A DNA stretch of 64,000 nucleotides from Dehalococcoidia bacterium (GTDB taxonomy: Bacteria > Chloroflexota > Dehalococcoidia > Lucifugimonadales > UBA1127), in NCBI GenBank assembly GCA_963694315.1, contig CAVOCU010000001.1:9276-73275 (forward strand). Direction: 5' to 3'. The notes beneath the pieces were generated by a model. It saw nothing but the letters and a program-made list of their open reading frames with translations, did not search any database and was not told where the DNA came from. Positions 4,829-63,128 of this stretch are shown piece after piece. How positions within the stretch are numbered: position 1 is the first letter of the stretch; each line of letters opens with the position of its first letter. The translations under genes were made by a program, and so were the position numbers.

Positions 4829-5404
4829 ATGGCTCAAGTAGTTGGGTACACACTAGATGCGTTCATTGAAGACGTTCGAAAGGCCTTTGCCGATTCGGAT
4901 GACGCCAAGGTTCAGGCACAGACAGTGGCCGGGGACATGGGTACGCTCTTGCAAGTTCCAAACTTGCTGGACGGAAAGATTGAGATACCGGAGACGGGCA
5001 CAGCTGTCGCCAGCCTTCACCATGACACGGATTACGGCCATCCAGCCCCCGGGTTCTGGCTGATGTGCAATGTCCAGACCAGGAGTGGCGCAACGGTCGG
5101 CGTCCACCCCCATGACCACGGTGCGGCATGGGTTGTGTACGGGGTCTACTCCGGCGCTATCCAGCAGACAACATGGCGATGGGCCTTCCATGAGCCTGAC
5201 CGCACGGTTCCTCACCTTGACGAGGCCGGTCAGTGGGTTCAGAAGCCCGGCGAGGTAGCATTCTTCATGCCAGGTGCCATCCACGCCCAGAAGAACATCA
5301 ACGACGGCCCTTCAGTGGTCATTCGACTTGAGGCGCAGAAGCTTGATGGCGTGATTCGGCATAGCTACAACCTGGAGACTGAGGCCGCTACCATAGTCGG
5401 CTAA
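4829..5404 (+). CDS. cupin domain protein (metal-dependent, function unknown)
   Basis: 191-aa ORF with HPHDHGAAWVVYGV and GAIHAQKN cupin-like motifs. SD GGAGG. First gene behind the promoter at 4730. Confidence 0.55.
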   Translation: MAQVVGYTLDAFIEDVRKAFADSDDAKVQAQTVAGDMGTLLQVPNLLDGKIEIPETGTAVASLHHDTDYGHPAPGFWLMCNVQTRSGATVGVHPHDHGAAWVVYGVYSGAIQQTTWRWAFHEPDRTVPHLDEAGQWVQKPGEVAFFMPGAIHAQKNINDGPSVVIRLEAQKLDGVIRHSYNLETEAATIVG

Positions 5405-5433
5405 TTACGATAATTACAAGGAGTGAACACACA

Positions 5434-6366
5434 ATGGCCCTGAAAGACACCATTGCCGTTGGTATGGCAACCCCCCAGGCGTTTCTGCGCAACCCCATAG
5501 ATATGAGCCAGGTACGGACCGTGGCCCAACGGGCGGAGGCTCTGGGCTTCCGCGACCTTTGGACAACGGAGAACACCCTGGGGCCAAACAACAGCCTGGA
5601 GCCCTCCGTGCTCCTGAGCTACGTCGCCGGATTGACTACCACCATCAGGCTTGGTGTGTCAGTAGTGGTGTTCCCCTTTCACAGCCCCATCAACGTAGCT
5701 CGGCGTTACGGCACCCTGGATCAGGTGAGCAGCGGTCGGGTTACGCTGGGCCTTGGGATTGGCAGGGGCGATGCTGCACAGTACGCCGCCTTTGGGCTTC
5801 CCTTTGAGCGAAGAGTGACCCGGTTCACAGAGGGTGTGGAACTGCTGAAGGCCCTGTGGACAGAGCCTGTGGTCAATTTTAAAGGCGAGATATTCCAGAT
5901 AGAGGGCGCGACGATGGAGCCAAAGCCCATACAGAAACCACACATACCCCTCTGGATGGGTGGAGTACACCCCAACGTGCTCAAGCGCACCGCGGCCATT
6001 GCGGATGGGTGGATGGGGGCTGGAGGCAACACCACATCCCAGTATCCGGGCCTGGTTGCTACCCTACGGCAGGAGCTTGAGGCAGTAGGTCGAGACCCGG
6101 CCACGTTCCCTACGTCCAAGCGCATCTACGTGTCTGTGAGCGAGGTGCCCGGCGAGGCCCTTGCAGAACTGACGCACTTTTGTCAGACGACGTATGGTAA
6201 CGGCGATAACGCCGCTGACCAGGGCATATGCGGCACCCCGGAAGAGGTGAGGGAGCAGTTGGAATCCCTGGTTGCTACTACAGGCCCTGACCACTTGTTG
6301 CTGCACCCCGTGACCCGCTTTGTTGAGCACGTGGACGCGGTGGCAGAGATTGTGGGCCTGAAATAG
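5434..6366 (+). CDS. luciferase-like monooxygenase (LLM class, F420/flavin-dependent oxidoreductase)
   Basis: 310 aa with an LLM signature (GFRDLWTTEN, GRVTLGLGIG, IPLWMGG). Confidence 0.85.
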   Translation: MALKDTIAVGMATPQAFLRNPIDMSQVRTVAQRAEALGFRDLWTTENTLGPNNSLEPSVLLSYVAGLTTTIRLGVSVVVFPFHSPINVARRYGTLDQVSSGRVTLGLGIGRGDAAQYAAFGLPFERRVTRFTEGVELLKALWTEPVVNFKGEIFQIEGATMEPKPIQKPHIPLWMGGVHPNVLKRTAAIADGWMGAGGNTTSQYPGLVATLRQELEAVGRDPATFPTSKRIYVSVSEVPGEALAELTHFCQTTYGNGDNAADQGICGTPEEVREQLESLVATTGPDHLLLHPVTRFVEHVDAVAEIVGLK

Positions 6367-6447
6367 AGATTATCGCTTGACGGCGGAATCACAGCAGTAG
6401 ATTCTGTTTAGTGACCCTGGATAACGGGGTAAAAGGGGAGGGTATCA

Positions 6448-7758
6448 ATGCTTTCACAACGGGAAAACGAGCTTCTGTCTCAGGTTGGCCCCGGAACGCC
6501 TATGGGAGAGCTGTTCAGGCGGTTCTGGCTCCCTGCGTTGCTATCATCGGAGCTCCCTGAGCCGGACTGTGCACCGATACGTCTGCGGCTGCTCGGCGAA
6601 AACCTGGTGGCCTTCCGTGACACGGATGGTAAAGTCGGCGTCATCGATAACGCATGCCCACATCGTCGCGCCAGCCTGTTCTTCGGTCGCAACGAGGAGT
6701 GCGGACTCCGCTGTGTCTATCACGGCTGGAAGTTCGATGTGAACGGCGATTGCGTGGACATGCCCTCGGAGCCTGCCGAGAGCAACTTCAAAGATAAGGT
6801 CAAGATTAAGGCATACCCCGCAGAGGACTTCGGCGATTGCATCTGGATATACATGGGGCCACCGGAGTTGAAGCATGACCTGCCCCAATTCGAGTGGGCG
6901 CGTGTGCCTGCCAACCAGCGTCGGGTTTCGCGATGGATTCAGGACTGCAACTACATGCAGGCTTTGGAAGGCGACCTCGATTCGACCCACGTGTCCTTCC
7001 TGCATAGGTGGATGGACGTGGAGCAGGCCATGCCCTGGGACCCGCAGCAGAAGGAGCGACGCCGCAAGACGAATAGCGGTCAGGCGTTGTTGTACCGTGA
7101 GGGAGCCCCCCGGTTCTCCGTCAAAGAGACCGACTTTGGCATGATCTACGGTGCACGTCGACCCGCGGGCGACGACGAGTACTACTGGCGGCTCACCAAC
7201 TGGATGCTGCCCGTGTACACTATGCCGCCCCAGCCCACGTCCTGGTTTGGCCACGCATGGGTGCCGGTGGACGATGAGCATATCTCTGTGGTGTCTTTCA
7301 ACTGGAACCCCAACGAGCCGCTGAACACGCCTACGGCCAACAATTCCGGCAACATTGAGCTTGAGCGTTGCCAGATGCCCTTCCCGGACGGCTTTGTCAT
7401 AGACACATGGCGTGATGTCCGTCAGGCCACCAATGATTACAAGATTGATAGGGAGCTTCAGCGCACCGGAAACTACACGGGCATTGGGCCGCAGCGAACC
7501 CAGGACGTCATGGTCAATGAGACCCAGGGCGGGGTGTCAGACCGGACCAAGGAGCACCTGGGCACGACGGATATGGCTATCATTGCCGCGCGACGGAAGT
7601 TATTACGATTGGCCCGGGAGCTTCAGGAGGGCATAGAACCTGTGGCGGCAATGCAGGGCGATATGTATCACATTCGCGCCATTGATGTGGTGACGAGCGA
7701 GTCGGACATCGTCAGCGTCCTGGAAAAGCACGGTGACATAGGCGTCGCGACGAACTAA
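6448..7758 (+). CDS. Rieske [2Fe-2S] oxygenase, alpha-only type (paralog 1)
   Basis: CPH-x16-CVYH Rieske motif and DSTHVSFLH (D-x2-H-x4-H) mononuclear iron motif. SD GGGGAGG. Confidence 0.9.
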   Translation: MLSQRENELLSQVGPGTPMGELFRRFWLPALLSSELPEPDCAPIRLRLLGENLVAFRDTDGKVGVIDNACPHRRASLFFGRNEECGLRCVYHGWKFDVNGDCVDMPSEPAESNFKDKVKIKAYPAEDFGDCIWIYMGPPELKHDLPQFEWARVPANQRRVSRWIQDCNYMQALEGDLDSTHVSFLHRWMDVEQAMPWDPQQKERRRKTNSGQALLYREGAPRFSVKETDFGMIYGARRPAGDDEYYWRLTNWMLPVYTMPPQPTSWFGHAWVPVDDEHISVVSFNWNPNEPLNTPTANNSGNIELERCQMPFPDGFVIDTWRDVRQATNDYKIDRELQRTGNYTGIGPQRTQDVMVNETQGGVSDRTKEHLGTTDMAIIAARRKLLRLARELQEGIEPVAAMQGDMYHIRAIDVVTSESDIVSVLEKHGDIGVATN

Positions 7759-7770
7759 CTCTAGTGTGGG

Positions 7771-13438: not shown

Positions 13439-13939
13439 CTAGGCCTGCACTGCCCAAGACTGAGCCAGGCCCGGGAAGTCCCGGGCCATTTCATCAAGGG
13501 TGTCTTGGGATAGCAACGCATAGGAGCCTGTGGCTTCCACAGCTACCCGACCGTCAGCCAGCGAAACCCAGCCTTTGGTGTTGATGATGTTCCCCCGCCC
13601 ACCGCTCTTCTCCGCCGTAGCTGTCACGCGCTCGTCCGATGGTATTGGCAACCTGAACCGAAGCTCCAGTCGCGCTGACATACCCCAGCAGTTCTCCAAC
13701 ACTGGAACGCGACTCATCACCTCGTCCAGCAGGGCCGTGATGATTGCGCCGTGGAGGAAGCCCGGAAACCCCTGGTGGTGCGCCTTCCCCTGGTACGTCG
13801 TTACCACTTGGTTGCCCTGTCTCTCAAAGGTGAGCTGCAAGCCGCCAGTGTTTTTGGGGCCGCAGGCAAAGCACTGACCGTAGTCGGAATCATCGTTCAG
13901 GGAGATGGCCCTCGGAGGGTCAAAAAATTCTATGGTCAA
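13439..13939 (-). CDS. PaaI-family hotdog-fold thioesterase
   Basis: CFACGPKNTGGLQLTF and GFLHGAIITALLDE motifs. TTG start behind GAGGTG. Confidence 0.7.
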   Translation of the reverse strand: MTIEFFDPPRAISLNDDSDYGQCFACGPKNTGGLQLTFERQGNQVVTTYQGKAHHQGFPGFLHGAIITALLDEVMSRVPVLENCWGMSARLELRFRLPIPSDERVTATAEKSGGRGNIINTKGWVSLADGRVAVEATGSYALLSQDTLDEMARDFPGLAQSWAVQA

Positions 13940-13950
13940 CGCGTCACCTC

Positions 13951-13963
13951 ATTACAACATTAC
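13951..13963 (+). repeat. ATTACAACATTAC 13-mer, copy 1 of 3
   Basis: Exact 13-mer, also present at 37114 and 37980. Here it abuts the SD of the minus-strand thioesterase gene. Confidence 0.9.
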
Positions 13964-14019
13964 AACGGGTATAACCCGCTATAGGAGTGGCTTGACTCAG
14001 GGGCCTCTGGTTCCGATGC

Positions 14020-14943
14020 TTAACCTTGAGCTGGTTGGGCACCTGCAGCCGTAAGCCTGTCCTTCGCAGCTACTATCACATCGTCTGGGAGTGGTCCTTT
14101 AGCAGCTGCGGTGATGTTGTCATCCAGATGTTCCGTGCTACTAGTTCCAACAATCGTGGTGTCCAGTCCGGGGTGGGAAAGGGTGAAACGCAGCATGAAC
14201 TCCATGCGAGTCATACCCTCTAGCAACTCATCCAGCTTGGAACTGTCCCACCAGTCTTGCATGGTCTCGTTGGGCAACATGTAATACCTACGGCCCTCCC
14301 AATCGTCAGGGGTACCCCGGGCCACGCCACCACGGACGATGATGCCCATCCCTGCATCAGACGCCTTGGTGATGACACCTTCATGCTCGCGTTGCAGGGC
14401 TGAGTAGGGTATTTGAAAGACATCGAACACGCCCATATCAATCTGCTCATGGAGTGTGGGCAAGACCCCAGACACGCCAACGAAGCGAGTTTTGCCTTCG
14501 TCTCGCAGCTTCAGCAGCTCCGCCAGAGCTTCCTCAGCATCAAATTCATCACGGCCAAGACTGCGATGGAACTGAACCACGTCAAGGTGGTCTGTCTTAA
14601 GGGTGCGCAAACTGTGCTCTACGCCTTCCCGAATGTTCTTGGCGGTGTGGACGTGGTCAGAGCCCTGCGGAGCGTTGGGTACACAACCACACTTGGACGC
14701 CAGCACGTACTCTGAGCGTCTGTGAGAAATGAACTTACCTATCAACTCCTCGCTTCTGCCGTAGTCAATGGAGGTGTCAATGAAGTTGATGCCCTTGTCT
14801 AAAACCTGGTTGAGCAGCTTGTCAGCAGCTTCGTCGCTGATGGCGGGGCCTGTCGTCCCCCCTCGCAGCTCCATAGCACCAAAGCCAAGAGTTGTTACCT
14901 GCAAGTCCGTACGGCCAAGGGCACGCCTTGGTATAGCATCCAT
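14020..14943 (-). CDS. aldo/keto reductase
   Basis: 307 aa. LGFGAMELRG, INFIDTSIDYG and IPYSALQRE are typical AKR blocks. Confidence 0.9.
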   Translation of the reverse strand: MDAIPRRALGRTDLQVTTLGFGAMELRGGTTGPAISDEAADKLLNQVLDKGINFIDTSIDYGRSEELIGKFISHRRSEYVLASKCGCVPNAPQGSDHVHTAKNIREGVEHSLRTLKTDHLDVVQFHRSLGRDEFDAEEALAELLKLRDEGKTRFVGVSGVLPTLHEQIDMGVFDVFQIPYSALQREHEGVITKASDAGMGIIVRGGVARGTPDDWEGRRYYMLPNETMQDWWDSSKLDELLEGMTRMEFMLRFTLSHPGLDTTIVGTSSTEHLDDNITAAAKGPLPDDVIVAAKDRLTAAGAQPAQG

Positions 14944-14954
14944 ATGTGAATTTC

Positions 14955-16016
14955 CTATGGTTTCGGTTCTTCCCTGTAGAAGCCAAGAGCCTTCAGCACA
15001 GGGGTGTCCGTGAAGCTGAACAGGAACGCTGGCTCCGTTGAGGATTCGTTGACATGTTCGTGGAAGGCCCAGCCCGGGACGCAGAACGTATCCTTGTTCG
15101 CCCAGTCCAGCTTCTGATCGCCAACCAGCGTGTGCCCCTTCCCCTCCACCACGTGGTAGACGGAGCTGGTCGTATGGCGATGGGCCTTTGTGCGCTCGCC
15201 CGGCCGCAGGAGTTGAACGAAGCAGGCTATCGTCGGCATAGCATGGCCGCCGGTGCTGGGGTTGGTGTACTCCATCATTACGCCGTCGTAGGGGCTACCG
15301 TCCTCACCTGTTGCCAATCGCTCCAGGGCTTCTCGCGTGCGATCCCAGGGGTAGTACATCAGCGGTGAAGAGCCTTCTTCTTTGCGCTCAATCCACGTGG
15401 GTTGCAGTGCCATGCTGCCGTATTTGGCCAGCGATGACCCTGGAAACTCGGTGATAGGCTGAGTGTCCTCCGAGTACGGGTCGTGGAAGGACATCTCCAG
15501 AAAATTCACTAGAGGCAAATCAAGCCCGTCCAGCCATATCATGGGATTCTTCGTATCGTTGCCGTGGTCGTGCCAAGCCCACGGGGGCGTTAGCACCAAG
15601 TCGCCTGGCAGCATAGGGAACCGCTCGCCTCCTACCGACGTGTAGCCGCCGTCACTCTCAATGATGAAGCGCAGCGCAGCGGGCGTGTGCCGGTGCGCTG
15701 GGGAAATCTCGCCTGGAAGCACCGTTTGGATGCCCCCGAACAGTGTTTGCGTTGTGGCAGTCCGGCCACCAAGTCCCGGGTTCATAAGCCGGAGAACCCG
15801 CCGCTCAGCTTCCGCTGTTCCAACCAACTCTGTGGCGCGTATGGCTTGGGGTCGAATGTCTTTCCAGCTCCATACGTACGGAGTGACCTTGCTGGCGGGT
15901 TCCCGTGCTTGAATGTCGCCCATGACCGTCCAGAGGGGCGCGACGTTATAGGCTTCCAGTTTTTTGTAGTATTTCTGTAGTTCTTCCGTAGTAGTCTGTT
16001 TGCTGGACACTTCCAC
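14955..16016 (-). CDS. gentisate 1,2-dioxygenase-like bicupin
   Basis: 353 aa. N-terminal LEAYNVAPLW and two cupin modules with His ligands (HRHTPAAL, HRHTTSSV). GTG start behind GGAGG. Confidence 0.8.
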   Translation of the reverse strand: MEVSSKQTTTEELQKYYKKLEAYNVAPLWTVMGDIQAREPASKVTPYVWSWKDIRPQAIRATELVGTAEAERRVLRLMNPGLGGRTATTQTLFGGIQTVLPGEISPAHRHTPAALRFIIESDGGYTSVGGERFPMLPGDLVLTPPWAWHDHGNDTKNPMIWLDGLDLPLVNFLEMSFHDPYSEDTQPITEFPGSSLAKYGSMALQPTWIERKEEGSSPLMYYPWDRTREALERLATGEDGSPYDGVMMEYTNPSTGGHAMPTIACFVQLLRPGERTKAHRHTTSSVYHVVEGKGHTLVGDQKLDWANKDTFCVPGWAFHEHVNESSTEPAFLFSFTDTPVLKALGFYREEPKP

Positions 16017-24036: not shown

Positions 24037-24087
24037 GCTTACTCCCGTATATCCCCAGATACGTTGTTACTGCCTTCCCCAGGGAAA

Positions 24088-24113
24088 CATTACAATATTT
24101 ATATTGTAATGTA
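24088..24113. promoter_or_regulatory. perfect 12-2-12 palindrome ACATTACAATAT-tt-ATATTGTAATGT
   Basis: Read directly. Lies 52-77 nt upstream of the GH15 GTG start. Contains TACAAT on both strands. Confidence 0.6.
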
Positions 24114-30070: not shown

Positions 30071-30841
30071 TTATAGGTCTTTGCTCACTAAGTGGGTGTA
30101 GTACTTCCATGCACCGCCAGGGCCTGCGTTCCCTCTGGCCCGTGGCCCACCAGCAAAGTGGGCTAGATCCCCAAGGGTTGGCTGGTTGTTGGCTTCTTCA
30201 ATGTCTGCCTCTGGGATGCCGGTGTAGTTTGGCCCGGCTGCGCAGTAGGCGTACCAGTTCATCTTTGCCTGCTCTTCAAGTTGGAACATGTTCATCACAG
30301 ACTGTTCCAGGCTGGCCCCTGTGGTCACAGCGCCATGACCGCGAAGCAACGCCGCCTGCGATTCTCCAAGGGTACTTGCAACGTCCTGGCCGTCCTCTTC
30401 CGTCAAGATGAGCTTGCTGTGGGGATACACCGGCAATGGCGTTCGTACTAGGTGGATGCCCTCGTTGCACATGGGTACCAACGCCTTTTCCAGCACGCTC
30501 ATCATCGTTGTGTACCTGGGGTGCACGTGGACAATGGAGTTCACTTCCGGGTGCGCCTTGTAGATGGCAGAGTGCATCTTGATCTCAAAGCACTGTTACG
30601 ACCCGGGAGGGCTGTCTATCCAGTACCCCTCAAGGTCACAGGTGACCATGTCTTTTGGCTGCATTAACGCCAGCGCGTCAATCGCGTAGCCGCGAACCTT
30701 GACCACAAATTTGTCTGGTTCGCCGGGAACGCGCAGGCTGGCATGTCCCAGGGATGCTAGGACTCCTGTAGTTAGCCCCACCTCTGCCAGTACGCGGTTT
30801 GCTACAGCTACTTCGTATTGAACGTCATCAATCTCCACCAT
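30071..30841 (-). pseudogene. class II aldolase/adducin domain gene interrupted by an in-frame TAA (30596-30598)
   Basis: Track ORFs 30596..30841 and 30071..30577 share a frame. The joined sequence reads ...DSPPGS[TAA]QCFEIKMHSAIYKAHPEVNSIVHVHP, which matches the intact paralog at 1703. Confidence 0.7.
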
Positions 30842-37111: not shown

Positions 37112-37126
37112 AAATTACAACATTAC
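37112..37126 (+). repeat. AAATTACAACATTAC 15-mer, left copy
   Basis: Exact 15-bp direct repeat with 37978-37992. Immediately precedes the SD of the small cupin gene. Confidence 0.9.
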
Positions 37127-37137: not shown

Positions 37138-37485
37138 ATGGGAAACACATACCGCATGTACGTCGGCAGCGACGGCAAGGCCACTTGGGAGGCAGTTGAT
37201 TTGGAGGTGGCCACAGAGTGGACAAAGGGCATAGACGTCACCCAGATTCGCTACGGCTCCCGTGCCCCGGGCGTTGTGCAGGACTGGCATCCTGCTCCGC
37301 AGCGTCAGTTCGTGATAATCCTGTCCGGCCAGCTTGAAATCGGCTTTGAGGACGGCTCCAAGAAGGTCTTCGGCCCCGGAGACGCCCGGCTCGTCGAGGA
37401 CATCACTGGCAAGGGCCACACCACCATCGCCCTCGGCAACGAGCCGTGCATCACCGCCACCATCGGGCTTGTAGACCAGGACTAA
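37138..37485 (+). CDS. small cupin domain protein
   Basis: 115 aa with the beta-rich DWHPAPQRQFVIILSGQLEIGFEDG. SD GGAGG. Confidence 0.5.
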   Translation: MGNTYRMYVGSDGKATWEAVDLEVATEWTKGIDVTQIRYGSRAPGVVQDWHPAPQRQFVIILSGQLEIGFEDGSKKVFGPGDARLVEDITGKGHTTIALGNEPCITATIGLVDQD

Positions 37486-37560: not shown

Positions 37561-37776
37561 CGTGGCGGTCAACCCGGCGGTGTATCGCGTCCGATCTGGA
37601 TTTGCGGTGCTCACCCATGACGTTCTCTTCGATGAGGGTAAACAAGCCTAGGCTGAGAGGTTTGTGTTAGCCTGATATTTTAGCCAATGTAGCTATAGTA
37701 GTTAAATTGTAGTATATATGTAGTGTTTATTCCCCGTGATGTATTTTCCCGTTGTGAACCCGTTGTTATGCACCTT

Positions 37777-37977: not shown

Positions 37978-37992
37978 AAATTACAACATTAC
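37978..37992 (+). repeat. AAATTACAACATTAC 15-mer, right copy
   Basis: Exact repeat of 37112-37126. Overlaps the stop codon (37989-37991) of the minus-strand amidohydrolase gene. Confidence 0.9.
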
Positions 37993-43286: not shown

Positions 43287-43591
43287 TCAAATCCTATAAG
43301 TACAGATTGCTAAAGAAAACAATCTCAGTATTTCGTGGTTCGCCGCAGTGTATGGTGGTGCGGGAGGTATGTCAACGTCTTTGAGATGGCATTTTCGATG
43401 ACTGCTGAACGTTCTTTTGGTGAATATTAGCTATGAGCGACATATAATTAGCCAATAATATCTGATTCTTTGTAATTCACTACGATAAACGTTAGGTCGA
43501 TAGAAATACGCATATATAACCGTCCTTGTGAGTGAATGTATGTGGTGGTAGGCTGACAGCAGTTCAGCTCTCAGAACAAAGGTGAAGCCCT

Positions 43592-45975: not shown

Positions 45976-46727
45976 TGGAGGTGGCCTCCTTCCGCAAAAG
46001 CGACGCCATGGGCACCATAGAGTTCTTCTAGGACTTCCGGGGTGAAGGCCGTGTCCGGCGGGCCAACTGCACAGACATGGCGGTTTATACACAGAACCGT
46101 ATCAAAGCGTTCAGAGAGCCTGGTCAGGTCATGGGTGGCTAGGAGGATAGTTTTACCTTCATCTCGTAACTCACGTAGCGCTCCTACAAGAGCTTCCTGG
46201 GACGCAAAATCTACTCCACTAAAGGCCTCGTCCAGCATGAGTATGTCGGCCTCCTGTGCCAAAGCGCGCGCCACGAACACCCGTTGACGCTGTCCGCCGG
46301 AGAGTTCTGAGACAAGGTTGTTCCGCACCTCCCACATACCTACACGGTGCAAACACTCATCAACAAGATTACGATCATTACTATTCGTCTGATGTAACCG
46401 TCCGCTCTTATGAACGCGTCCAAGGAGGACCACTTCCCGGGCTGTAAGGGGGAATCGCCAGTTGATGGATTCTTTCTGGGGGACATACGCAAGGCGACCC
46501 CGGGCTTTCTCCGGCGGGAGGCCATGCACTAGAACTGTGCCTGCTTGGAGTGGCACAAGGCCTGCAATGGCGTTGAACAGGGTGCTCTTTCCTGCTCCGT
46601 TGGGGCCAACAACCCCCACAAGAGTGCCTACGGCTAACGATGCTGTGACGTGCTCCAACACAACCGAATCGCCGAATTGCACCATCACGTCAGTCATGGT
46701 GAGTGCGTCTACGGGCCTAGTGGTCAT
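45972..46727 (-). CDS. znuC: metal (Zn/Mn) ABC transporter ATP-binding protein (ZnuC-like)
   Basis: Walker A GPNGAGKST, LSGGQRQR and LMLDEA. Confidence 0.9.
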   Translation of the reverse strand: MTTRPVDALTMTDVMVQFGDSVVLEHVTASLAVGTLVGVVGPNGAGKSTLFNAIAGLVPLQAGTVLVHGLPPEKARGRLAYVPQKESINWRFPLTAREVVLLGRVHKSGRLHQTNSNDRNLVDECLHRVGMWEVRNNLVSELSGGQRQRVFVARALAQEADILMLDEAFSGVDFASQEALVGALRELRDEGKTILLATHDLTRLSERFDTVLCINRHVCAVGPPDTAFTPEVLEELYGAHGVAFAEGGHLH

Positions 46728-47671: not shown

Positions 47672-47699
47672 ATTATAATTTAATGAGATATTATCTCAA
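47672..47699 (-). promoter_or_regulatory. znuA promoter TTGAGA-N16-TATAAT with overlapping 7-1-7 palindrome TGAGATA-a-TATCTCA (47684-47698), a putative Zur box
   Basis: Read on the minus strand. The palindrome covers the -35 and spacer. Its architecture matches Fur-family 7-1-7 boxes, and zur lies directly upstream. Confidence 0.6.
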
Positions 47700-48150: not shown

Positions 48151-48187
48151 ACACCACTCCTGAGATAAAGTCTCAATTGGTAATACA

Positions 48188-48216
48188 ATCGTACTATGTG
48201 CAGGAATCAGGGTCAA
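48188..48216 (-). promoter_or_regulatory. sigma-70-type promoter TTGACC-N17-TACGAT upstream of zur
   Basis: Read on the minus strand, 38 nt upstream of the GTG 48150 start. Confidence 0.6.
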
Positions 48217-48514
48217 GAGAACTTACCTGGTGCTAGCTACTTTAGCAGCTATGGGGGATTGGTAGTCAGCAACCGGGTTATACCCTGGCTGAAGGAGCCG
48301 ATGTACTGCGTCATGGTCTTCTGTACTCATCATCCGCAGCAAGCAAGCCTGAGCCCTGCCAGGGCGAGACCTTGGACCCAAAACTCTGCCGGTTACCCAA
48401 GAGTGAGTGCAGGAACATGAACTCACCACATTAAGTGGTAGTTTCCCCGGCTTCCTCTCGTTATACTACTGTCCATCCTGAAATCCTCTTGAATTGCCTC
48501 ATGAAAGGAATCCT

Positions 48515-49804: not shown

Positions 49805-49961
49805 GGGCCTTAGGCCAACCGGTACTTTGGCTCGGAACTAAATATAGTTGCCATTCGTTTTTCGTAAGTGTCAGGTGACGCGGAGGATCTTTCTGTCTTG
49901 TTGACAGCTACGATACGCGTATGCTAGCGTGAGAAGAAGGATTTCGAAAATATCACAAACG

Positions 49962-50270
49962 CTGTGACGGGGAGTAGTAGCATAGTTCACGCTTCAGAGA
50001 GTCGGCGATAGGTGGAAAGCCGATAGCGGTTGGATTGCGAACTCGCCCCTGAGTGGAGGGAGTGAACAAGGGCGCGCCCTTGGCCCACGTTTTCTGGAAC
50101 TGGTCATACGGCTAAGCCAGATAGATGCGGGAACAAGTGAGGTTCTTTGTAGCTCCCTACGGTTGCGCCGTTACAGCAGCCTGAGGTGTTCCTTTTCATC
50201 TGAGAAGGAAAATGAGGGTGGTACCGCGGGTAGCGATGAGACCCGTCCCTGGTGGACGGGTATTTTTGTG
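49962..50270 (+). promoter_or_regulatory. T-box riboswitch leader, Leu specifier CUC (50042-50044)
   Basis: GA/K-turn, AGUA...GAA-CUC-G specifier loop, AG bay AGAGAG (49996), distal loop GGUGGAA (50011) and F-box CCGUUA (50168). The T-box AAUGAGGGUGGUACCGCG (50211-50228) matches the consensus exactly. A terminator follows. Confidence 0.9.
50241..50270 (+). terminator. T-box terminator hairpin ACCCGTCC-ctggt-GGACGGGT plus ATTTTTGTG
   Basis: 8-bp GC-rich stem followed by a U-run, 90 nt upstream of ilvB. Confidence 0.85.
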
Positions 50271-52717: not shown

Positions 52718-53716
52718 ATGGCTACGATGTACTACGACAAGGACGGGGATCCAGCGATATTGGAAGGCAAGACCGTTGGCATAATTGGCTACGGAAGCCA
52801 GGGCCATGCACACGCGTTGAACCTGAAGGACAGCGGCTATAACGTCATGGTTGGGCTGTATAAGGGCAGCAGCTCATGGGCTAAGGCTGAAGAGGCTGGC
52901 CTTAAGGTTGCAGAGGTATCGGAAGTTGCCCAGCAGGCTGACGTGATTATGATACTGGTGCCGGATATGAAGCAGAAGCTGGTCTACGATGAGTCTATTG
53001 CTCCGTATTTGACCTCTGGCAAGACGTTGATGTTTGCCCACGGGTTCGCCATCCACTTCAAGATGATAGTGCCTCCGGCGGATGTGGACGTCAGCATGAT
53101 TGCTCCCAAAGCCCCTGGTCACAGGATGCGTGAGATATTCACCCGCGGTATGGGTGTTCCCTCGCTGATTGCGGTATACCAGAACCCTTCAGGTCACGCG
53201 AAGGAAACGGCGTTGGGCTATGGAATTGGTGTAGGTTCCGGGCGTGCAGGGATTCTTGAGACAACCTTCAAAGAAGAGACAGAGACGGACCTCTTTGGTG
53301 AGCAGTCTGTGCTTTGCGGTGGAGTCACCTCCCTCATCAAGATGGGCTTTGAGACCCTTGTTGAGGCAGGCTATCAGCCGGAAGTTGCCTACTTTGAGTG
53401 CATGCATGAGGTGAAGCTCATTGTTGACCTGCTGTACCAGGGTGGCATGTCCTACATGCGCTACTCTATCAGCGAGACGGCGGAATACGGGGATTACAGC
53501 CGTGGCCCCCGGGTGATTGACGAGCACGTTCGGGAAACTATGCGAACAGTGCTCAAGGAGATTCAGAGCGGTGAATTCGCCAGAGAATGGATTGCTGAGA
53601 ACGACGAGGGTCTGAAGCGGTTCCAGCAGGATCGCAAAGAGGGCGCCGAGCACCCCATTGAGAAGGTTGGGGAAGAGCTGCGCTCCATGATGCCCTGGCT
53701 GCAACAGACTATCTAA
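52718..53716 (+). CDS. ilvC: ketol-acid reductoisomerase
   Basis: [16 protein letters not shown] and a class I KARI length (332 aa). Confidence 0.95.
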
Positions 53717-53769
53717 CCGAGAATTACACAGGAGTCAGATAGTTATGGCAATTGGGGAGGGTATCCGTG

Positions 53770-53810
53770 CAGTCCTCGTCCTGGAAACAGGACGAGACTG
53801 CGTTGTTTTG
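53770..53810 (+). terminator. terminator-like hairpin plus U-run inside the ilvC-leuA spacer
   Basis: CAGTC(C)TCGTCCTG-gaaa-CAGGACGAGACTG forms 13 bp with one bulge, followed by CGTTGTTTTG. It is embedded in a 29-codon ORF (53745..53834). Confidence 0.5.
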
Positions 53811-53867
53811 AAAACTCTTACTCATATCGCGTAAACACGAAGAGAAAGAGCAAGGGAGAATACGATA

Positions 53868-55418
53868 ATGGCTGAGAACAGAGTACGCATATTTGACACC
53901 ACGCTGCGTGACGGAGAGCAGGCGGCAGGTGCGTCTATGACTGGCGATGAGAAGCTGGAGATTGCTAAGCAACTCGAAAAGCTGGGAGTTGATGTCATTG
54001 AAGCTGGCTTTGCTGCGTCATCACCCGGCGACATGGAGTCAATCAAGCGCATCGCCAAAGAGATTAAGAACTCAACCGTGTGTTCATTAGCCCGGGCAAA
54101 CCCTGACGACATAGACGCGGCGTGGGAGTCCATCAAAGAAGCCGTGTATCCGCGTATCCACACGTTCATTTCAAGCTCTGACATCCATATGGAGCACCAG
54201 CTTCGGAAGAATCGCGAAGAGGTCATGGATATGGCTGTGACTGCGGTCTCCCGGGCTAAAGGGTACTGTGAGGATGTGGAGTTCTCTCCCATGGACGCCA
54301 CCCGGACAGACCCGGATTTCCTGTATGCGTTGGTTCAGGCGGCTATTGATGCAGGGGCCACGACCATCAACATCCCAGATACAGTGGGCTATGTGATACC
54401 AGAGGAATTTGGCGCACTTATCGCCAGCATCATTGAGAACGTACCCAACATAGACAAGGCAATCATCAGTGTCCACTGCCACAACGACCTGGGGCAGGCA
54501 GTGGCCAACAGCCTGGCGGCGGTGAAGGCAGGGGCGCGTCAGGTAGAGGGTTGCATCAACGGCATTGGAGAGCGGGCGGGCAACACTGCCTTGGAAGAGG
54601 TCATCATGGCCCTCCACACGCGTCGTCAGTACTTTGATACGACGGTGGGCATAGACACCACCCAGATATACCCGACCAGCCGTATGGTCAGCGAGATTAC
54701 CAATTTCCCGGTGCAGCCGAACAAGGCGATAGTTGGAACGAACTCGTTTAGGCACGCCTCTGGCATTCATCAGGACGGGATCATCAAGGAACGAACGACC
54801 TACGAGATTATGGATCCCAAAGACGTTGGCTGGGTTGGGGAGACAATGGTTCTCTCCAAGCTGAGTGGTAGGGCGGGGCTCCGATCCCGTATGGAGGAGC
54901 TAGGCTACACGTTGGACAGGGACGAGCTGAACAGAGTATTCATGTCCTTTAAAGAGCTTGCCGATAAGAAGCGTGAAGTGACGGACCGGGATCTGGAAGC
55001 CCTGATGGCAGAAGACCGCCGAGTGGAAGAGGTCACGGGCTATCACGTAGAGTCCGTAGCTATTCTGACGGGCACTGGACTGGTTCCTACGGCCACCTTG
55101 GTTATGATTACCCCGGACGGTGAGAAACGGACTGAACAGATGGAAGGCAACGGCCCGGTGGACGCTGTCTGCAATGCCGTTGTCCGCATTGTTGGGGTTC
55201 AGCCGAAATTGGACGAATACAGTGTGCGTTCTATTACTGAGGGGTTGGATGCTGTGGGTGATGTGACGGTGCGCTTGCGCTATGAGAACCATATCTACAC
55301 GGGTCGCGCTGCTCACACGGATATCCTGGTGGCCAGCGCTAAGGCGTACACCAATGCGGTGAACCGCTTACTGACCCTTGATGGCACGGAAATCCAGGGC
55401 GAGATGCAGGGCGTCTAA
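53868..55418 (+). CDS. leuA: 2-isopropylmalate synthase
   Basis: [12 protein letters not shown] and HCHNDLG motifs. 516 aa. Confidence 0.95.
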
Positions 55419-55500
55419 CAACGCAGCATCTTGCAGGCTGGGAGACAGGCGATACCCTAGCTACTATTACGAGATTACAATTTATAGTGAGGTTATAGCT

Positions 55501-56907
55501 ATGCCCGGAAAGACGATGTTTGAGAAAATTTGGGATGCTCACGTGGTGTCTGAGGAACCGGGTAAACCCTCTGTTATCTACGTGGATCTCCACTTGGTGC
55601 ATGAGGTCACATCCAACCAGGCATTTGACGGCCTGCGTATTGCCAAGCGTGGCGTCCGTCGTCCGGATCTGACGGTGGCGACCGCTGACCATGACATCCC
55701 GACCACAGACCGCTCCAAGCCCATCGCGGACCCCATTGCAGTTCAGCAGCTGGAGCACCTGGCGAACGATACCAAGGAGTTCAAAATCCAGTTTGCGGAC
55801 ATGCACAGTCCCTTGAATGGTATTGTCCACGTCATTGGGCCTGAACAGGGACATACGCAGCCGGGGAAGGTCATTGTGTGCGGAGACAGCCATACGGCCA
55901 CTCACGGCGCGTTTGGGGCCTTTGCGCTTGGCATTGGCACATCAGAAGTGGAACACGTGCTGGCCACCCAGACGTTGCGACAGACAAAGCACAAGACCAT
56001 GCAGGTGGACGTGAACGGCCCGCTGCCCTTCGGCGTCACCGCTAAAGATCTCATCCTGGCCATCATCGGGCAGATAGGCATCGCTGGAGGAACCGGATAC
56101 GTCATCGAGTACACGGGCCAGGGTGTCCGTGAACTATCGATGGAAGGCAGGATGACCTTATGTAACATGTCGATCGAGGGCGGCGCCCGGGCCGGGATGG
56201 TTGCTCCGGACGAGAAGACATTTGAGTACATGAGAGGTCGCGCCAATGTGCCTCAGGGTGATGCCTTTGACGAAGCTGTAGAGAAGTGGAAGCTGTTGCC
56301 ATCGGACGCAGACGCCGTTTACGACAGGATAGAGGTCATTGACGCAGCATCGCTTGAGCCGCATCTGACCTGGGGAACCAACCCCGGCCAGGTGGCAAGC
56401 ATATCCAGCACTGTGCCGGACCCGTCATCCTTTGCCGACCCCGCCGACCGTGAGAGCGCGGAGCGGGCACTGGCCTACATGGGTCTGGAGGCGAACACAC
56501 CGATGACCGAGGTTCCAATAGACCGTGTGTTCATTGGTTCCTGCACTAATTCCCGCATAGAGGACCTTAGGGCCGCTGCTGCGGTTGCCAAGGGCCATAA
56601 GGTGAACGCTAGGGTTGGGGCAATGGTTGTCCCGGGCTCCTACAACATTAAACAGCAGGCGGAAGCCGAGGGTCTGGACAAGATATTTATTGAAGCTGGA
56701 TTCGAGTGGCGCAATGCCGGCTGCTCCATGTGTCTGGCAATGAACCCGGACATGCTACTTCCCGGTGAGCGTTCAGCATCGACATCTAATCGCAACTTTG
56801 AAGGCAGGCAAGGCAAGGGCGGCCGAACCCACCTGGTGAGCCCGGAGATGGCTGCTGCTGCCGCTATAGCAGGGCATTTCGTGGACATACGCACCTGGGA
56901 AGGCTAG
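55501..56907 (+). CDS. leuC: 3-isopropylmalate dehydratase large subunit
   Basis: [12 protein letters not shown]-terminus and aconitase-family Cys ligands. The track ORF start 55378 is an extension. Confidence 0.95.
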
Positions 56908-57015
56908 CCCCAGAGCGAGCCTTGGACCCGGGCTACCTGGCGGGTACCAAACAGAATTTGGCGAGGCACTTGAGTAAGAAAAATTACAATCTGTAATGAA
57001 TCCTAGGAGGATACG

Positions 57016-57609
57016 ATGGAGCCATTCAAAAAGCACTCAGGCGTGGTGATGCCCCTGGACCGGGTCAACGTAGACACGGACCAAATCATCCCCAAGCAGT
57101 TCTTGAAACGGGTTGAGCGTGATGGGTATGAGGATTTCCTGTTCTTTGACTGGCGCTTTGACGCAGATGGGACGCCGAACAAGGATTTTGTGCTGAACCA
57201 CCCGGGCTACAAAGACGCGTCCGTGTTGGTGGCTGGTAGGAACTTTGGATGCGGTTCATCGCGAGAACATGCACCCTGGGCACTTCAGCAGTACGGGTTC
57301 AAGGCAATCATCTCACCAAGCTATGCAGACATCTTTTACAACAACTGCTTCCAGAATGGCTTGCTTCCGGTGACGCTGGACGAGGTCTCCGTGGCGCATA
57401 TCACGGCGCAGGCCAAGGAGATTCCTGGCTACGAGGTGACCGTTGACCTGGAGAACTGTGTAGTCTCTGACAGTGAGGGTTTCAGAGCTTCTTTCAGTCT
57501 GGACGAGTTTAAGCAGTATTGCTTGCTGAACGGCCTGGACGATATTGGCATCACCCTTCAGGATGAGGGCGCTATCACGGCGTACGAAGCAAAGCAGCAG
57601 GGCGCGTAG
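57016..57609 (+). CDS. leuD: 3-isopropylmalate dehydratase small subunit
   Basis: VNVDTDQIIPKQFL and GRNFGCGSSREHA. SD AGGAGG. Confidence 0.95.
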   Translation: MEPFKKHSGVVMPLDRVNVDTDQIIPKQFLKRVERDGYEDFLFFDWRFDADGTPNKDFVLNHPGYKDASVLVAGRNFGCGSSREHAPWALQQYGFKAIISPSYADIFYNNCFQNGLLPVTLDEVSVAHITAQAKEIPGYEVTVDLENCVVSDSEGFRASFSLDEFKQYCLLNGLDDIGITLQDEGAITAYEAKQQGA

Positions 57610-58564: not shown

Positions 58565-58730
58565 GAGATGTTGATGCTCTCCTCTCGGTTAAAACCAAAG
58601 GGTCATAAGGCTGTGTTTCAGCGATGGTATACCATTCACTCGCCCAAATGGGGTGAACATGACAGAGTAAGCCGGTCTCAGATATAAACGACCCGGGCAT
58701 TCCTCATTCTACAGCTATACTGTAATTTGT

Positions 58731-58764
58731 AGGTAATACAACTACAATTGTAGTTTTATTACCT
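58731..58764. promoter_or_regulatory. 34-bp near-perfect palindrome AGGTAATAcaACTACAATTGTAGTttTATTACCT
   Basis: One mismatch. The core ACTACAATTGTAGT is perfect. Lies in a 590-bp unassigned spacer. Confidence 0.55.
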
Positions 58765-59101
58765 ATTCAGCTACGAACTGTGGAAGGGATACCCTGCCGT
58801 CTTGGACTGCATACTCTTGACGTTGGAGCTGCGGCTTTCTATGCTGCGGCTCGACGAATGTATGAGGAGTGTGGCCACGCCAGAGTTTACGCTGCACCTG
58901 AATCAGGAGCTGAAGCGTGACGTGCCATCTAAGGCTGTGCCGATAATAGACAACGGACGCGGCGGCCTGTGTTTTATCTGATGCTGGCAGAGGAACCGAG
59001 CATGGCCCATGTGGACGTTGATGAGTGGACTACGGTGAATCCACTGGTAGAGGTAGTGCCTGCAGGGTAAGACGTGTCAGTCTGATTTGGGATATAAAAA
59101 G

Positions 59102-60328: not shown

Positions 60329-60360
60329 GACATCCTCCGTAACAGGGTAGTACCAACTTG

Positions 60361-61620
60361 CTAGACCAGAGCGTGCCCTGGGTCCAAGGGACGAGCCTCC
60401 TGCCAGGTGATGTTTGCGGGCTTCGTAAAGTCATCACCGCGGATGAGTTCATAGGTGATGGACGCAGCCAACCCGGGCGGATCTATGCCGTCAGTGTAGC
60501 CGCGGACAGAGTCTGCCAGCAGTCGCCGCATCGCGATGATGGCGCGGTCGCTGGTGCCAAGGTGCTCCCGCGTGCGGTCATAGATGGCTCCCATGGTCTC
60601 CTGGACGGCGTGGTCCTGGGTGCGTGTGCCGAAGATGCCTGAGAAGCCCCGGGACTTCATTGCCTCCCGGTCTTGCAGATACCAATTATCGAAGTTTCTC
60701 GCCTTCCGAAACCCGGGTTGCAGGTCATGGAAGCCGAACTGCTCAATGCGGTCTGCGCGCTCCTGGGCTGTGAAAGGACGCTCCTCGTTGAAGCCGATCT
60801 CCCACTGCCAACAACTGAAATCATCGCGAGGCACCCAGATGGAAAAGCCGGTGGTGCGGCCAGGAGCCCCGGGAATGTAGGCATAGAACGGAAGGATATA
60901 GGGCGTCATGCGCACGTACTCCTCGCTGTCGCTGGCTCGCCTGACGGCGGCGTACCTGTAACCGTAAGACGTGTACTCAACCTCCAGGCGTGGGGCAGTG
61001 TCCTTCATCACAAGGGCGTTTACCGGATTTCCCCACCCGGTGCGTACCCCGCTGAAAGAGCGGTGCAGGAACGAGGCGTGGGAAGAGTCTATGCCACCCT
61101 CTAATCCTTGGAGGTAGTTGCTTTCTTGAATGGTCTTGATGAGCACAAGGTGATCATCCGTCACCTTTGTCCACTGGAAGGCTGGGAACGGGGGGAGTTT
61201 ATCTGCCGGCCCCATATACGCCCACACAATGCCTGCCACTTCCTGAACCGGATAGGCCCGGGCCTGCACCTTATCTTTGAAGTTGCTGGCGGAGGGTTCT
61301 GAGGGCATGTCCAGGCAGTTGCCGTCAACATCGAATTTCCAGCCGTGGTAGATACACGTTAGGCCGCAGTCCTCGTTGCGACCCAAGGCCAGGGATGCGC
61401 CGCGATGGGGGCAGTACTCTTCCATAACGCCTACCTTCCCATTGGTATCGCGGAAGGCAATCAAATCCTCGCCCAGGAGTTTGAGGCGTATGGGAGTGCC
61501 GTCGTGTTCGCGGATTTCGCTTGCTATGAAGGCCGGTATCCAGAACCGACGCATCATTTCACCCAAGGGCGTACCCCGGTCAGTCCGAGTGATGAGATTG
61601 TTCTCTTCCTTGGTCAGCAT
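60361..61620 (-). CDS. Rieske [2Fe-2S] oxygenase, alpha-only type (paralog 5, most divergent)
   Basis: CPH-x16-CIYH plus DSSHASFLH. Confidence 0.9.
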   Translation of the reverse strand: MLTKEENNLITRTDRGTPLGEMMRRFWIPAFIASEIREHDGTPIRLKLLGEDLIAFRDTNGKVGVMEEYCPHRGASLALGRNEDCGLTCIYHGWKFDVDGNCLDMPSEPSASNFKDKVQARAYPVQEVAGIVWAYMGPADKLPPFPAFQWTKVTDDHLVLIKTIQESNYLQGLEGGIDSSHASFLHRSFSGVRTGWGNPVNALVMKDTAPRLEVEYTSYGYRYAAVRRASDSEEYVRMTPYILPFYAYIPGAPGRTTGFSIWVPRDDFSCWQWEIGFNEERPFTAQERADRIEQFGFHDLQPGFRKARNFDNWYLQDREAMKSRGFSGIFGTRTQDHAVQETMGAIYDRTREHLGTSDRAIIAMRRLLADSVRGYTDGIDPPGLAASITYELIRGDDFTKPANITWQEARPLDPGHALV

Positions 61621-61658
61621 GCTCTCCCCTTAAATATGTAATGTTGAAATAATTGTAG

Positions 61659-61994: not shown

Positions 61995-62327
61995 CTAGTA
62001 CGTGATCATGCGTTGGTCGTCAAAGGTGTGGCTCCATGAACCCGGGGCATAACTGCTTGCCGGTACTGTGCTGGACATGATGATAGTAGCGGCACTTCCG
62101 GTAGCAACGGAGAATTTAACTCCACTACCATGTACGGAGGTAGCATTCAAAGCTGCCTCACGAATAAACTCCGATGTCTTCTTGTTGGCTTGGGCAGCGT
62201 GCTCGGTCACTCGGTTGAAGTCCGCACGGGGAAACGCTACCGAAACGATTGCACGATCCCCTGGTGAGGACTGCTCATCTGTTGTGGGCTGACCTTGTTC
62301 TGGGGTCTTAAACGATTCTTGTACCAC
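61995..62327 (-). CDS. ribbon-helix-helix (CopG-like) domain protein
   Basis: IVSVAFPRADFNRVTEHAAQANKKTSEFIREAAL fits a beta-alpha-alpha RHH pattern. GTG start behind AGGAGAA. Confidence 0.5.
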   Translation of the reverse strand: MVQESFKTPEQGQPTTDEQSSPGDRAIVSVAFPRADFNRVTEHAAQANKKTSEFIREAALNATSVHGSGVKFSVATGSAATIIMSSTVPASSYAPGSWSHTFDDQRMITY

Positions 62328-62349
62328 AGCTTTGTTCTCCTATGTGTCC

Positions 62350-62378
62350 TTGACAGATTACAGTGGAAATACTACATT
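62350..62378 (+). promoter_or_regulatory. sigma-70-type promoter TTGACA-N17-TACATT overlapped by palindrome ACTACA-tt-TGTAGT (62371-62384)
   Basis: Read directly. Lies in the divergent spacer between the RHH gene and ORF 62417. Confidence 0.6.
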
Positions 62379-62416
62379 TGTAGTGTATTGTAGCTTATGG
62401 GGTAGGAGATACACAA

Positions 62417-62860
62417 GTGGAAATCCAGTGGCTCATGTTGGCGGACGCCGCAGAGGTTGTTGCAAACAAGCTGTATATCATGGGTGGTGGCTGGGAAGTG
62501 CTGACGGTGAACACGCCGTTCCCGGTGGCGCGACACTGTGCTGTAGCTATTGCTGTACGGGTTCCCTGGCAGGAGACCAACCAGCAGAGCACGCTGGAAG
62601 TGGAAGTAGCTACGGAGTTTGGGCAGACCCTGGGTAAGATTACCGGGCACTTTGAGGTAGGCCGGCCTCCAGGTATTCGTACTGGGCAGGATCAGCTTAT
62701 GAAACTGGCTGTAGACCTTGATTTGAATCTGGATGGCCCCGGGCGATACTTTATTATGGGCAATGTGAACGGGCAGACAAGTACCCGTATGATGTTTCAG
62801 GTTGTGCCCGGGCCTTTGCTTGTAGCCAGTGGAGGAAGCCCACCTATCGCGCCTCAGTGA
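62417..62860 (+). CDS. conserved-looking hypothetical protein
   Basis: 147 aa. GTG start behind AGGAGA, downstream of a TTGACA-N17-TACATT promoter. Family not recognised with confidence. Confidence 0.5.
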   Translation: MEIQWLMLADAAEVVANKLYIMGGGWEVLTVNTPFPVARHCAVAIAVRVPWQETNQQSTLEVEVATEFGQTLGKITGHFEVGRPPGIRTGQDQLMKLAVDLDLNLDGPGRYFIMGNVNGQTSTRMMFQVVPGPLLVASGGSPPIAPQ

Positions 62861-63128
62861 ACCTTAGGTTCCTTTGTAGGGGCGGGAGCGAAATCTCACC
62901 CCTTTTTGTTTGGCTAGTCAAAATGCCTTCACCAACGTTGACCGTGGTGCTATCTGATGCTAGCTTGCTGGTTAACGAATAAGGGGGCCTTCCTGGCTTC
63001 TCCGTGTAGCTAGTACCCCACAAATACCATCCAAGAATGGTATGATTATGCGTCCAAACGGCGACAGATAGCTGTATTTCTCTGTTCGCTATTATGTGTA
63101 ATCTCGTTACATTACAAGGGGGCTAGGA

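Follow-up and report, generated by a model that had tools for sequence, protein, structure and literature searches.

A recurrent ATTACA box beside ribosome-binding sites of a marine SAR202 clade, tentatively read as a site for a DNA-binding protein

Arrays of short DNA words are bound by the omega repressor of pSM19035, whose heptads occur as direct, convergent or divergent copies, and by MetJ, which recognizes tandem 8-bp met boxes. On mRNA, the binding sites of ribosomal protein S1 are A/U-rich and lie upstream of the Shine-Dalgarno (SD) sequence, and the omega enhancer of tobacco mosaic virus (TMV) is active in bacteria. We know of no described regulatory signals of SAR202 bacteria, and a full-text search on SAR202 promoters, motifs and intergenic DNA yielded nothing on the subject. 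In this work we analyzed a recurrent AT-rich word, the ATTACA box, in a 64-kb stretch of DNA (hereafter the window; 56% GC) from a marine SAR202 (Dehalococcoidia) contig, whose gene content fits SAR202 (many Rieske/LigXa oxygenases, amidohydrolase_2 proteins, luciferase-like monooxygenases, cupins, and ilvBNC-leuACD behind a T-box). The over-representation of ATTACA is real, and the box is a regulatory signal limited to one clade. Which molecule reads it is a matter of weaker preference, and we lean toward a clade-specific DNA-binding protein. Two other described DNA sites are close in sequence, the WalR/VicR box TGTWAH-N5-TGTWAH (PMC4168254) of the WalRK system described for Firmicutes (bioRxiv 10.1101/2022.04.01.486798) and the Bacillus-type Zur box TCGTAAT-N-ATTACGA (PMC545781, PMC2706843), and the TMV omega leader carries ACAAUUAC repeats and a (CAA)n motif (PMC9502800).

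The gene map, drawn from open reading frames (ORFs), Pfam matches and JGI calls, left 8.36 kb of noncoding DNA in the window, and background counts were taken from 1000 dinucleotide-preserving shuffles. ATTACA/TGTAAT was the most over-represented hexamer of this noncoding DNA, with 17 copies vs 3.98±2.06 in the shuffles. ATTACAA/TTGTAAT was found 11 times (1.01 in shuffles) and the head-to-tail pair ATTAC-N3/4-ATTAC three times (0.02 in shuffles); none of the 1000 shuffles reached the observed count of any of the three words. The 13-mer ATTACAACATTAC occurs exactly three times (13951, 37114, and 37980) and was absent from 100 shuffles. An earlier look at the letters of this DNA, made without database searches (the sequence-only reading), had reported the threefold 13-mer and had proposed a comparison with shuffled background; the 13-mer count was reproduced, the enrichment appeared in the noncoding DNA, and all the words that it quoted were present where it had placed them. 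Alignment of all noncoding ATTAC sites gave an approximate consensus, (a)(a/c)ATTAC(A/g)(A)(c/t), outside which the copies show no similarity. Coding DNA holds 13 ATTACA copies, as composition and codon usage predict for both orientations. In a synonymous-codon shuffle neither orientation was avoided or in excess within coding sequences, and thus this comparison does not separate a DNA from an RNA reading. The density is uneven: flanks added to the window (9.4 kb to its left and 3.6 kb to its right, with 1.97 kb of extra noncoding DNA) contained zero ATTACA copies.

The copies fall into 13 loci, 9 of which have a copy within 30 nucleotides (nt) of a start codon, compared with 5.8 expected when copies were slid within their own spacers (P=0.018). 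Five loci are head-to-tail pairs (8-bp register at four, 9-bp at one), three are inverted or everted pairs with spacings of N5, N8, and N12 (the last becoming N13 in the relative L214), and about four are single copies; the gaps vary. All three spacers of the ilv-leu operon carry the box (53723, 55466/55474, and 56983/56992), as had been claimed, and the earlier remarks that the motif is not just a promoter feature and that copies exist inside coding DNA were also correct. The coding copies include two ATTAC-N4-ATTAC pairs, at 4363-4377 (minus-strand methyltransferase gene, encoding ITNIT) and at 46368-46381 (antisense in an ABC ATPase gene), for which a rough estimate gives ∼0.07 expected by chance in coding DNA; both share the 9-bp register and the ATTACGA form with the copy at 5404. 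All five head-to-tail pairs (5404, 13951, 37114, 37980, and 55466) read ATTAC on the window plus strand regardless of the direction of the adjacent gene (two-sided P ∼0.06), a bias that may have arisen by chance or may reflect the chromosome strand. GC skew in the window tracks gene direction, and the replication strand is therefore not readable from it.

The box shares with the omega and MetJ arrays a short, non-palindromic or minimal unit of 7-8 bp in two or more adjacent copies, and its 8-bp head-to-tail register is that of MetJ. Unlike those arrays, the window boxes come without an identified ribbon-helix-helix partner, many of them are single or 5-13 bp apart, they sit at ribosome-binding sites in apparent operons and not at mapped promoters, and their sequence is unrelated. 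Read in reverse, TGTAAT fits the WalR/VicR half-site TGTWAH and occurs as a direct repeat. A WalR-type (OmpR/WalR) site was nevertheless rejected, since the spacer is 2-3 nt (8-9 bp register) rather than 5 nt (11 bp) and the N5 form, with 5 copies vs 2.9 expected in the window, is not enriched. The Zur half-site ATTACGA/TCGTAAT is identical to the copies at 5404, 55466, and 46368, and a Fur-family gene lies in the window; a Zur-type 7-1-7 operator was likewise rejected, as GTAAT-N-ATTAC is absent from the window and the local zur-znuA region has TGAGATATTATCTCA instead. Like A/U-rich enhancers, the boxes are repeated, G-poor A/U/C words (AUUAC, CAA) directly 5' of the ribosome-binding site and are predicted to be unstructured. 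Such enhancers are, however, orientation-dependent and tolerant of drift, whereas one copy in this clade is invariant as the reverse complement and another lies in a 3' region. Integron attC, dif-like, and CsrA sites were dismissed from the sequence alone, as was, more tentatively, an extended pairing with the anti-SD. No structured RNA family of Rfam 15 matched at E<=1 in 53700-57030 or 13900-14060, and only the T-box at 49955-50253 reached threshold.

Close relatives known from metagenomes (82-90% protein identity) have kept the box within spacers that have otherwise diverged past alignment. The best-conserved copy is a perfect 8-bp tandem, ATTACAAC-ATTACAAC, on the plus strand at 13951-13966, reversed relative to its own gene. 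Its minus-strand reading, TTGTAATGTTGTAAT-GAGGTGA-N5-TTG, ends at the TTG start of a PaaI-like thioesterase gene (13439-13939); in the plus-strand direction the tandem is not followed by any small ORF. Upstream of this gene 27 columns (CCCGTTGTAATGTTGTAATGAGGTGAC) are invariant among the window, L214, L218, and L219 (82-89% protein identity), while the remaining 50-60 nt of the spacer are essentially random among the four genomes and the upstream gene differs in L214. An aldo/keto reductase gene stands between the bicupin and thioesterase genes in the window (13439-16016), L218, and L219 and is missing in L214 (8835-10486); the conserved reverse box and SD sit immediately downstream of this variable segment.

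Three further loci have kept the box. The tandem ATTACGAG-ATTACAAT (55466-55481, plus strand) lies 7 nt before the leuC SD (GTGAGG). In L087 (LeuD identity 89%) the region reads ATTACGGGATTACAAT vs ATTACGAGATTACAAT in the window, with the tandem kept as ATTACGGG-ATTACAAT; within the tandem the two genomes differ once only, in the 3 nt that separate the ATTAC cores, and the spacer's upstream half has largely diverged. Before leuD, the inverted pair ATTAC-N5-GTAAT (ATTACAATCTGTAAT, 56983-56997) lies 9 nt from AGGAGG. ATTAC is kept here in all four relatives that have the spacer (L209 has none): L210 retains ATTAC-N5-GTAAT with different letters between the arms, and L087 and L208 retain only ATTACAAC. 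The 26-bp perfect palindrome ACATTACAATAT-TT-ATATTGTAATGT (24087-24112; z -2.3 and -2.25) lies between the FIST and glycoside hydrolase family 15 (GH15) genes, 52 nt before the GH15 start, which confirms a palindrome noted earlier at 24088; in L214 the arms AACATTACA/TGTAATGTT are kept around an unrelated 11-nt loop. Single copies in the relatives are not conserved.

The remaining loci are known from the window. The pair ATTACGATA-ATTACAA (5404-5419, plus strand; head-to-tail, 9-bp register) opens on the last A of TAA (5402-5404), the stop codon that ends ORF 4829-5404, and runs directly up to GGAG, the SD of a luciferase-like monooxygenase gene (5434-6366). The tandem ATTACAAC-ATTAC (37114-37126, plus strand) directly abuts GGAGG-N7-ATG of a cupin gene (37138-37485). 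The third exact 13-mer (37980-37992, plus strand) covers the stop codon (37989-37991) of an amidohydrolase gene on the minus strand, before the terminator hairpin of that gene, and has no SD following on either strand. An identical 15-mer, AAATTACAACATTAC, at 37112-37126 and 37978-37992, 866 bp apart, flanks the cupin gene and an AT-rich 374-nt region. An inserted cupin cassette with the 15-mers as its edges is not supported, because relatives have the cupin gene beside the same molybdenum cofactor (MoCo)-dehydrogenase gene without the repeats (L220-L223). A single ATTACA (53723-53728, plus strand) is separated by 1 base from the AGGAG that serves a 29-codon leader ORF (53745-53834) between ilvC and leuA, and not leuA itself. 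The minus-strand single copy ACATTACAT (61637-61645) lies 5 nt before AAGGGGAG and the start of a Rieske oxygenase gene (60361-61620), and the everted pair TGTAAT-N8-ATTACA with GTTACA between (63097-63116) abuts the AAGGGGG of an aminotransferase gene that starts at 63129. Two weak singles are possibly chance copies: ATTACA (62357-62362, plus strand) within the spacer of a consensus-like promoter, TTGACA-N17-TACATT (62350), and TGTAAT (43471-43476, minus strand) 115 nt upstream of an MFS transporter gene. Of the sites that the sequence-only reading listed as usually preceding an SD, 37980 does not, and the copies at 43471 and 62357 are weak. Four copies abut the SD directly (ATTACAAGGAG, ATTACGGAGG, ATTACACAGGAG, and ATTACAAGGGGG). 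The genes that carry the box encode a monooxygenase, thioesterase, glycoside hydrolase, cupin, leuA leader, LeuC, LeuD, Rieske oxygenase, and aminotransferase. Because these share no common pathway, the reader of the box would be a global factor.

Outside the clade the box is rare or absent. The 20-kb ilv-leu loci of ∼40 other Dehalococcoidia and 40 other bacteria showed no noncoding ATTACA enrichment, none of the 22 Dehalococcoidia inspected had ATTAC before leuC or leuD, and ∼1.5 Mb of other ilv-leu loci contained only two ATTAC-N3-ATTAC pairs, both in Paenibacillus. The box is also missing from GTDB representatives (LeuC identity <=83%), the closest of which is a Dehalococcoidia metagenome-assembled genome (MAG) with LeuC identity of only 83%; the other matches are SAR202/Chloroflexota MAGs. 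The absence of the box from the ilv-leu loci of other Dehalococcoidia means that it does not serve the whole class as a promoter or ribosome signal. The cupin relatives at a greater distance (86%; L220-L223) lack the box and have gaatacacaactttatGGAGG in its place, and the nearest GTDB genome has GATACCTTTAG where the window has GATTACAATTT. These words in the box positions indicate that the boxes arose by few substitutions in existing spacers of one sub-clade. Selection then held them there, and it acts on the ATTAC cores in both orientations. The data examined amount to ∼78 kb of the host genome and ∼50 kb from clade relatives, a small sample that weakens the case for the reading favored below. 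Contig k141_1174470 of ENA assembly ERZ27247691 is identical to the window and several JGI/ENA marine metagenome contigs are 99.9% identical; L001-L006 and L211-L213, at 99.9-100% identity, gave no polymorphism information. A metagenome scan for exact AAATTACAACATTAC returned, among the matches listed, unrelated contigs and no new clade sequence. L096 and L204, promising at first as clade relatives, turned out to be unrelated.

With somewhat less than even confidence, we favor the view that a clade-specific DNA-binding protein reads the box arrays and acts as a repressor or roadblock at gene starts. The ATTAC(A/G)A(A/C) box would be a cis-regulatory element at the gene-proximal end of intergenic spacers, which a sequence-specific protein belonging to this SAR202 sub-clade would read as duplex DNA. 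The putative protein would bind the short non-palindromic boxes singly, and cooperatively where two boxes are adjacent, whether head-to-tail (8-9 bp register), inverted, or everted. Because the boxes sit 0-30 bp before the ribosome-binding site, a protein bound there may repress transcription or stand as a roadblock where it enters the gene; we infer both the DNA-binding nature of the reader and the repressive effect. The enrichment and the tandem and inverted architecture, both far above chance, support a DNA reader, as does the N5 spacing that is kept between the window and L210 while the letters change. Forward AUUACAA and reverse UUGUAAU have zero trinucleotides in common, and so one single-strand RNA reader cannot recognize both orientations, whereas a duplex-DNA reader sees the same site; since the reverse-complement copy is equally conserved, recognition of double-stranded DNA is favored. 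The functionally unrelated genes point to a global factor, and a box that is absent elsewhere and created by few point changes resembles transcription-factor sites evolving with a lineage-specific factor. The sequence-only reading had suggested, as one of three options that it left unranked, the operator of a dimeric regulator. Duplex recognition survives from that suggestion, but inverted pairs occur at no more than 3 of the 13 loci, with unequal spacings (N5, N8, and N12/13), and most pairs are head-to-tail at 8-9 bp. This mix of direct, inverted, everted, and single copies rules out a classical dimeric operator and is compatible with short-unit array binders such as those of the omega heptads and MetJ boxes.

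Several observations weigh against a DNA-binding protein. Most of the conserved copies lie in same-strand spacers (leuA-leuC, leuC-leuD, and upstream of the thioesterase gene) beside the SD with no promoter evident, where a DNA operator has no obvious job, and the bias toward start codons (P=0.018) is what would be expected of an mRNA element. The arrangements are heterogeneous (direct N3/N4; inverted N5, N8, N12/13; singles), and an 8-bp register places successive sites on different faces of the helix. At FIST-GH15 the pairing extends past the box with different letters in two genomes (ATAT/ATAT vs GG/CC), which favors a hairpin. A candidate binding protein for the box was not identified in the data examined; the only lead is ORF 61995-62327, with a weak NikA-like ribbon-helix-helix match (E 1e-4, below the Pfam cut-off).

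The alternative that survives best is an mRNA element of the translation-initiation region, which we rate only a little below the DNA reading. The A/U-rich, mostly G-free box 5' of the SD would keep the ribosome-binding site open after GC-rich intercistronic hairpins; it would be read by a sequence-specific RNA-binding factor, by the ribosome (protein S1), or by an endoribonuclease, with effects on translation or processing of single cistrons within operons. The position of the copies fits well, with 9 of 13 loci within 30 nt of the start codon, four copies abutting the SD, and the box in three successive ilv-leu spacers. Box and SD are predicted to be unpaired in most folds, with a stable, non-conserved hairpin just upstream in the window and three relatives. 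A place in the leader just 5' of the SD that is predicted to be open is what would be expected of a translational enhancer or S1 standby site. The arrangement is that of intercistronic translation initiation, and the words resemble ACAAUUAC/(CAA)n of the TMV omega enhancer (PMC9502800). The orientation does not fit. The best-conserved copy, before the thioesterase SD, is the reverse complement of the 13-mer and is invariant in four genomes, so that the copies do not share one strand sense; on the mRNA it introduces two AUGs with two- and three-codon mini-ORFs at the SD. The two orientations also lack a common RNA 3-mer, the box at 37980 occupies a 3' region away from any start codon, the exact sequence conservation goes beyond the needs of an A/U-rich standby site, and the sense orientation is not depleted within coding sequences. 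The earlier suggestion of an A/U-rich mRNA element therefore agrees with the position of the copies but not with their orientation.

A more elaborate version of the same idea, which we regard as improbable, is a clade-specific post-transcriptional regulon in SAR202, in which an 8-nt word beside the SD would be read on mRNA by a new RNA-binding or translation factor or by a complementary RNA; with a complementary RNA, the thioesterase-leader reverse tandem would be the regulator or a sponge. There is a slimmer chance that the boxes form an RNA-RNA pairing network, in which the forward boxes AUUACAACAUUAC at ribosome-binding sites are the targets of a complementary RNA GUAAUGUUGUAAU. Its regulator, sponge, or intramolecular partner would be the thioesterase-leader reverse tandem or a hairpin such as 24087-24112, and the RNA would contain UUGUAAUGUUGUAAU. 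Pairing between complementary copies would, like a duplex-DNA reader, accommodate both orientations. The minus-strand transcript at 13951 is exactly complementary over 13 nt to the copies at 37114 and 37980, and the reverse copy is the most strictly conserved, like a seed. In addition, inverted copies form predicted hairpins, with a compensatory stem extension at FIST-GH15, and clade specificity is typical for small RNAs. Against pairing, no separate transcription unit (promoter plus terminator) was found around any reverse copy, and targets besides the two exact copies would pair over 5+5 nt only.

The boxes are very unlikely to be -10 elements (TACAAT, TACGAT, TACATT, TAATGT) of -35-less internal promoters with very short leaders. 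TAnnnT does occur 5-7 nt before the SD at 5404, 13951 (minus strand), and 55474, and before leuD of L087 and L210; a hairpin precedes the box, as in a terminator-then-promoter layout; and two consensus-like promoters, at 48189-48217 (minus strand) and 62350, have TACGAT and TACATT as their respective -10 hexamers. The invariant core is, however, ATTAC and not TAnnnT, and about half of the copies lack the final T (-7): ATTACAAC (13951, 37114, 37980, L087, and L208), ATTACAAG (5413 and 63111), ATTACACA (53723), and ATTACGAG (55466). The first box of a tandem is conserved as well as the second, and there is no conserved -35 or TGn; relatives show no conservation 15-40 bp upstream of the boxes that they keep. 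A consensus scan gave a promoter only at 62350, where ATTACA is in the spacer, and TAnnnT is not enriched 3-9 nt before SDs in the genome. An exact 13-mer would be unexpected for promoters, the clear -10 boxes of the window resemble TATACT, and transcription would start in or after the SD for the SD-abutting copies and at the first SD base for the others. We concluded that internal promoters, proposed earlier from the TACAAT/TACGAT words, are not supported as a general explanation: the core is wrong, the final T is often missing, and no -35 is conserved.

Hardly more credible is a box with no dedicated function (an AT-rich spacer by-product, local duplication, mobile-element footprint, or DNA methyltransferase target without regulatory role), to which the uneven density with no copy in 1.97 kb of extra noncoding DNA, the unconserved single copies in relatives, and the two tandem copies within coding sequences would correspond, but which is largely refuted by conservation, the boxes being invariant where flanks are randomized, by dinucleotide-preserving shuffles that never reach the observed counts, and by the lack of similarity between copies outside the box, which excludes a repeat element. 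A dispersed repeat or mobile element, such as a repetitive extragenic palindrome (REP) or miniature inverted-repeat transposable element (MITE), was likewise rejected, as neither the three exact 13-mers nor any of the remaining copies have related flanks.

The CTACAAT/TTGTAG palindromes, which the sequence-only reading had lumped into the ATTACA family, belong elsewhere: the blocks 58721-58764 and 62370-62394 consist mainly of a second motif, TACAnnTGTA, and we treat these palindromes as a separate operator-like family. A 36-bp near-perfect palindrome (58732-58767) is centred on TACAATTGTA (58743-58752), and the palindrome TACATTTGTA (62373-62382) lies by a promoter, in a divergent region beside a small ribbon-helix-helix (RHH)-like gene (61995-62327). 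The window has the TACAnnTGTA core at 58743 and 62373 and nowhere else, in intergenic DNA both times. TACAnnTGTA is the cop box of CopY/BlaI/MecI-type repressors, for which the 10 bases are insufficient for binding (PMC7253601), and both sites match this 10-bp core exactly. No CopY/BlaI-family gene was found among the neighbors scanned with Pfam; in L210 an ArsR-type HTH_5 gene is adjacent instead. Related CTACA/TGTAG repeats occur at 37706-37727 of the window and at ∼1400-1440 in L209, ∼1800-1850 in L210, and ∼4480-4510 in L220. This family adjoins AHSA1, ArsR-type, and small RHH-like genes and is kept in more distant relatives than the ATTACA box.

Other features of the window were recorded alongside. 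The 29-codon ORF MAIGEGIRAVLVLETGRDCVVLKTLTHIA (53745-53834) between ilvC and leuA has its own SD. Its Val/Leu codons (GTC CTC GTC CTG) supply the 5' side of a GC-rich hairpin of 14 bp (∼53769-53801), after which come GUUGUUUUG and a U-run to 53809 (fold z -3.5). This predicted fold has the appearance of a leader-peptide attenuator acting on leuACD, whose operon carries a T-box upstream as well; the hairpin has no Rfam match. The T-box leader (49955-50253; 110.9 bits, E 1e-23) lies upstream of ilvB (50361). The TGAGATATTATCTCA of the zur-znuA region is a perfect 7-1-7 palindrome between znuA and the Fur-family gene (47684-47698), and TGAGATAAAGTCTCA (48161-48175) lies just downstream of the TTGACC-N17-TACGAT promoter of the Fur-family gene; both are probably Zur boxes of the host. 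Two adjacent minus-strand ORFs correspond to different parts of one Aldolase_II domain, 30071-30577 to the C-terminal part (profile 73-182) and 30596-30841 to the N-terminal part (profile 2-60). They look like a single gene broken by a stop codon or frameshift, and hence either a pseudogene or a fault of the assembly.

The SAR202 bacteria are an abundant group of the deep ocean with hardly any cultured members. A box under selection at unrelated catabolic and amino-acid biosynthesis genes is a handle on a global regulator of such an organism. If it is read on mRNA, the box would be an unusual sequence-specific element beside the ribosome-binding site, and a post-transcriptional regulon, if true, would allow single cistrons of an operon such as leuA-leuC-leuD to be controlled one by one. 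Read on DNA, the box would be one more lineage-specific operator.

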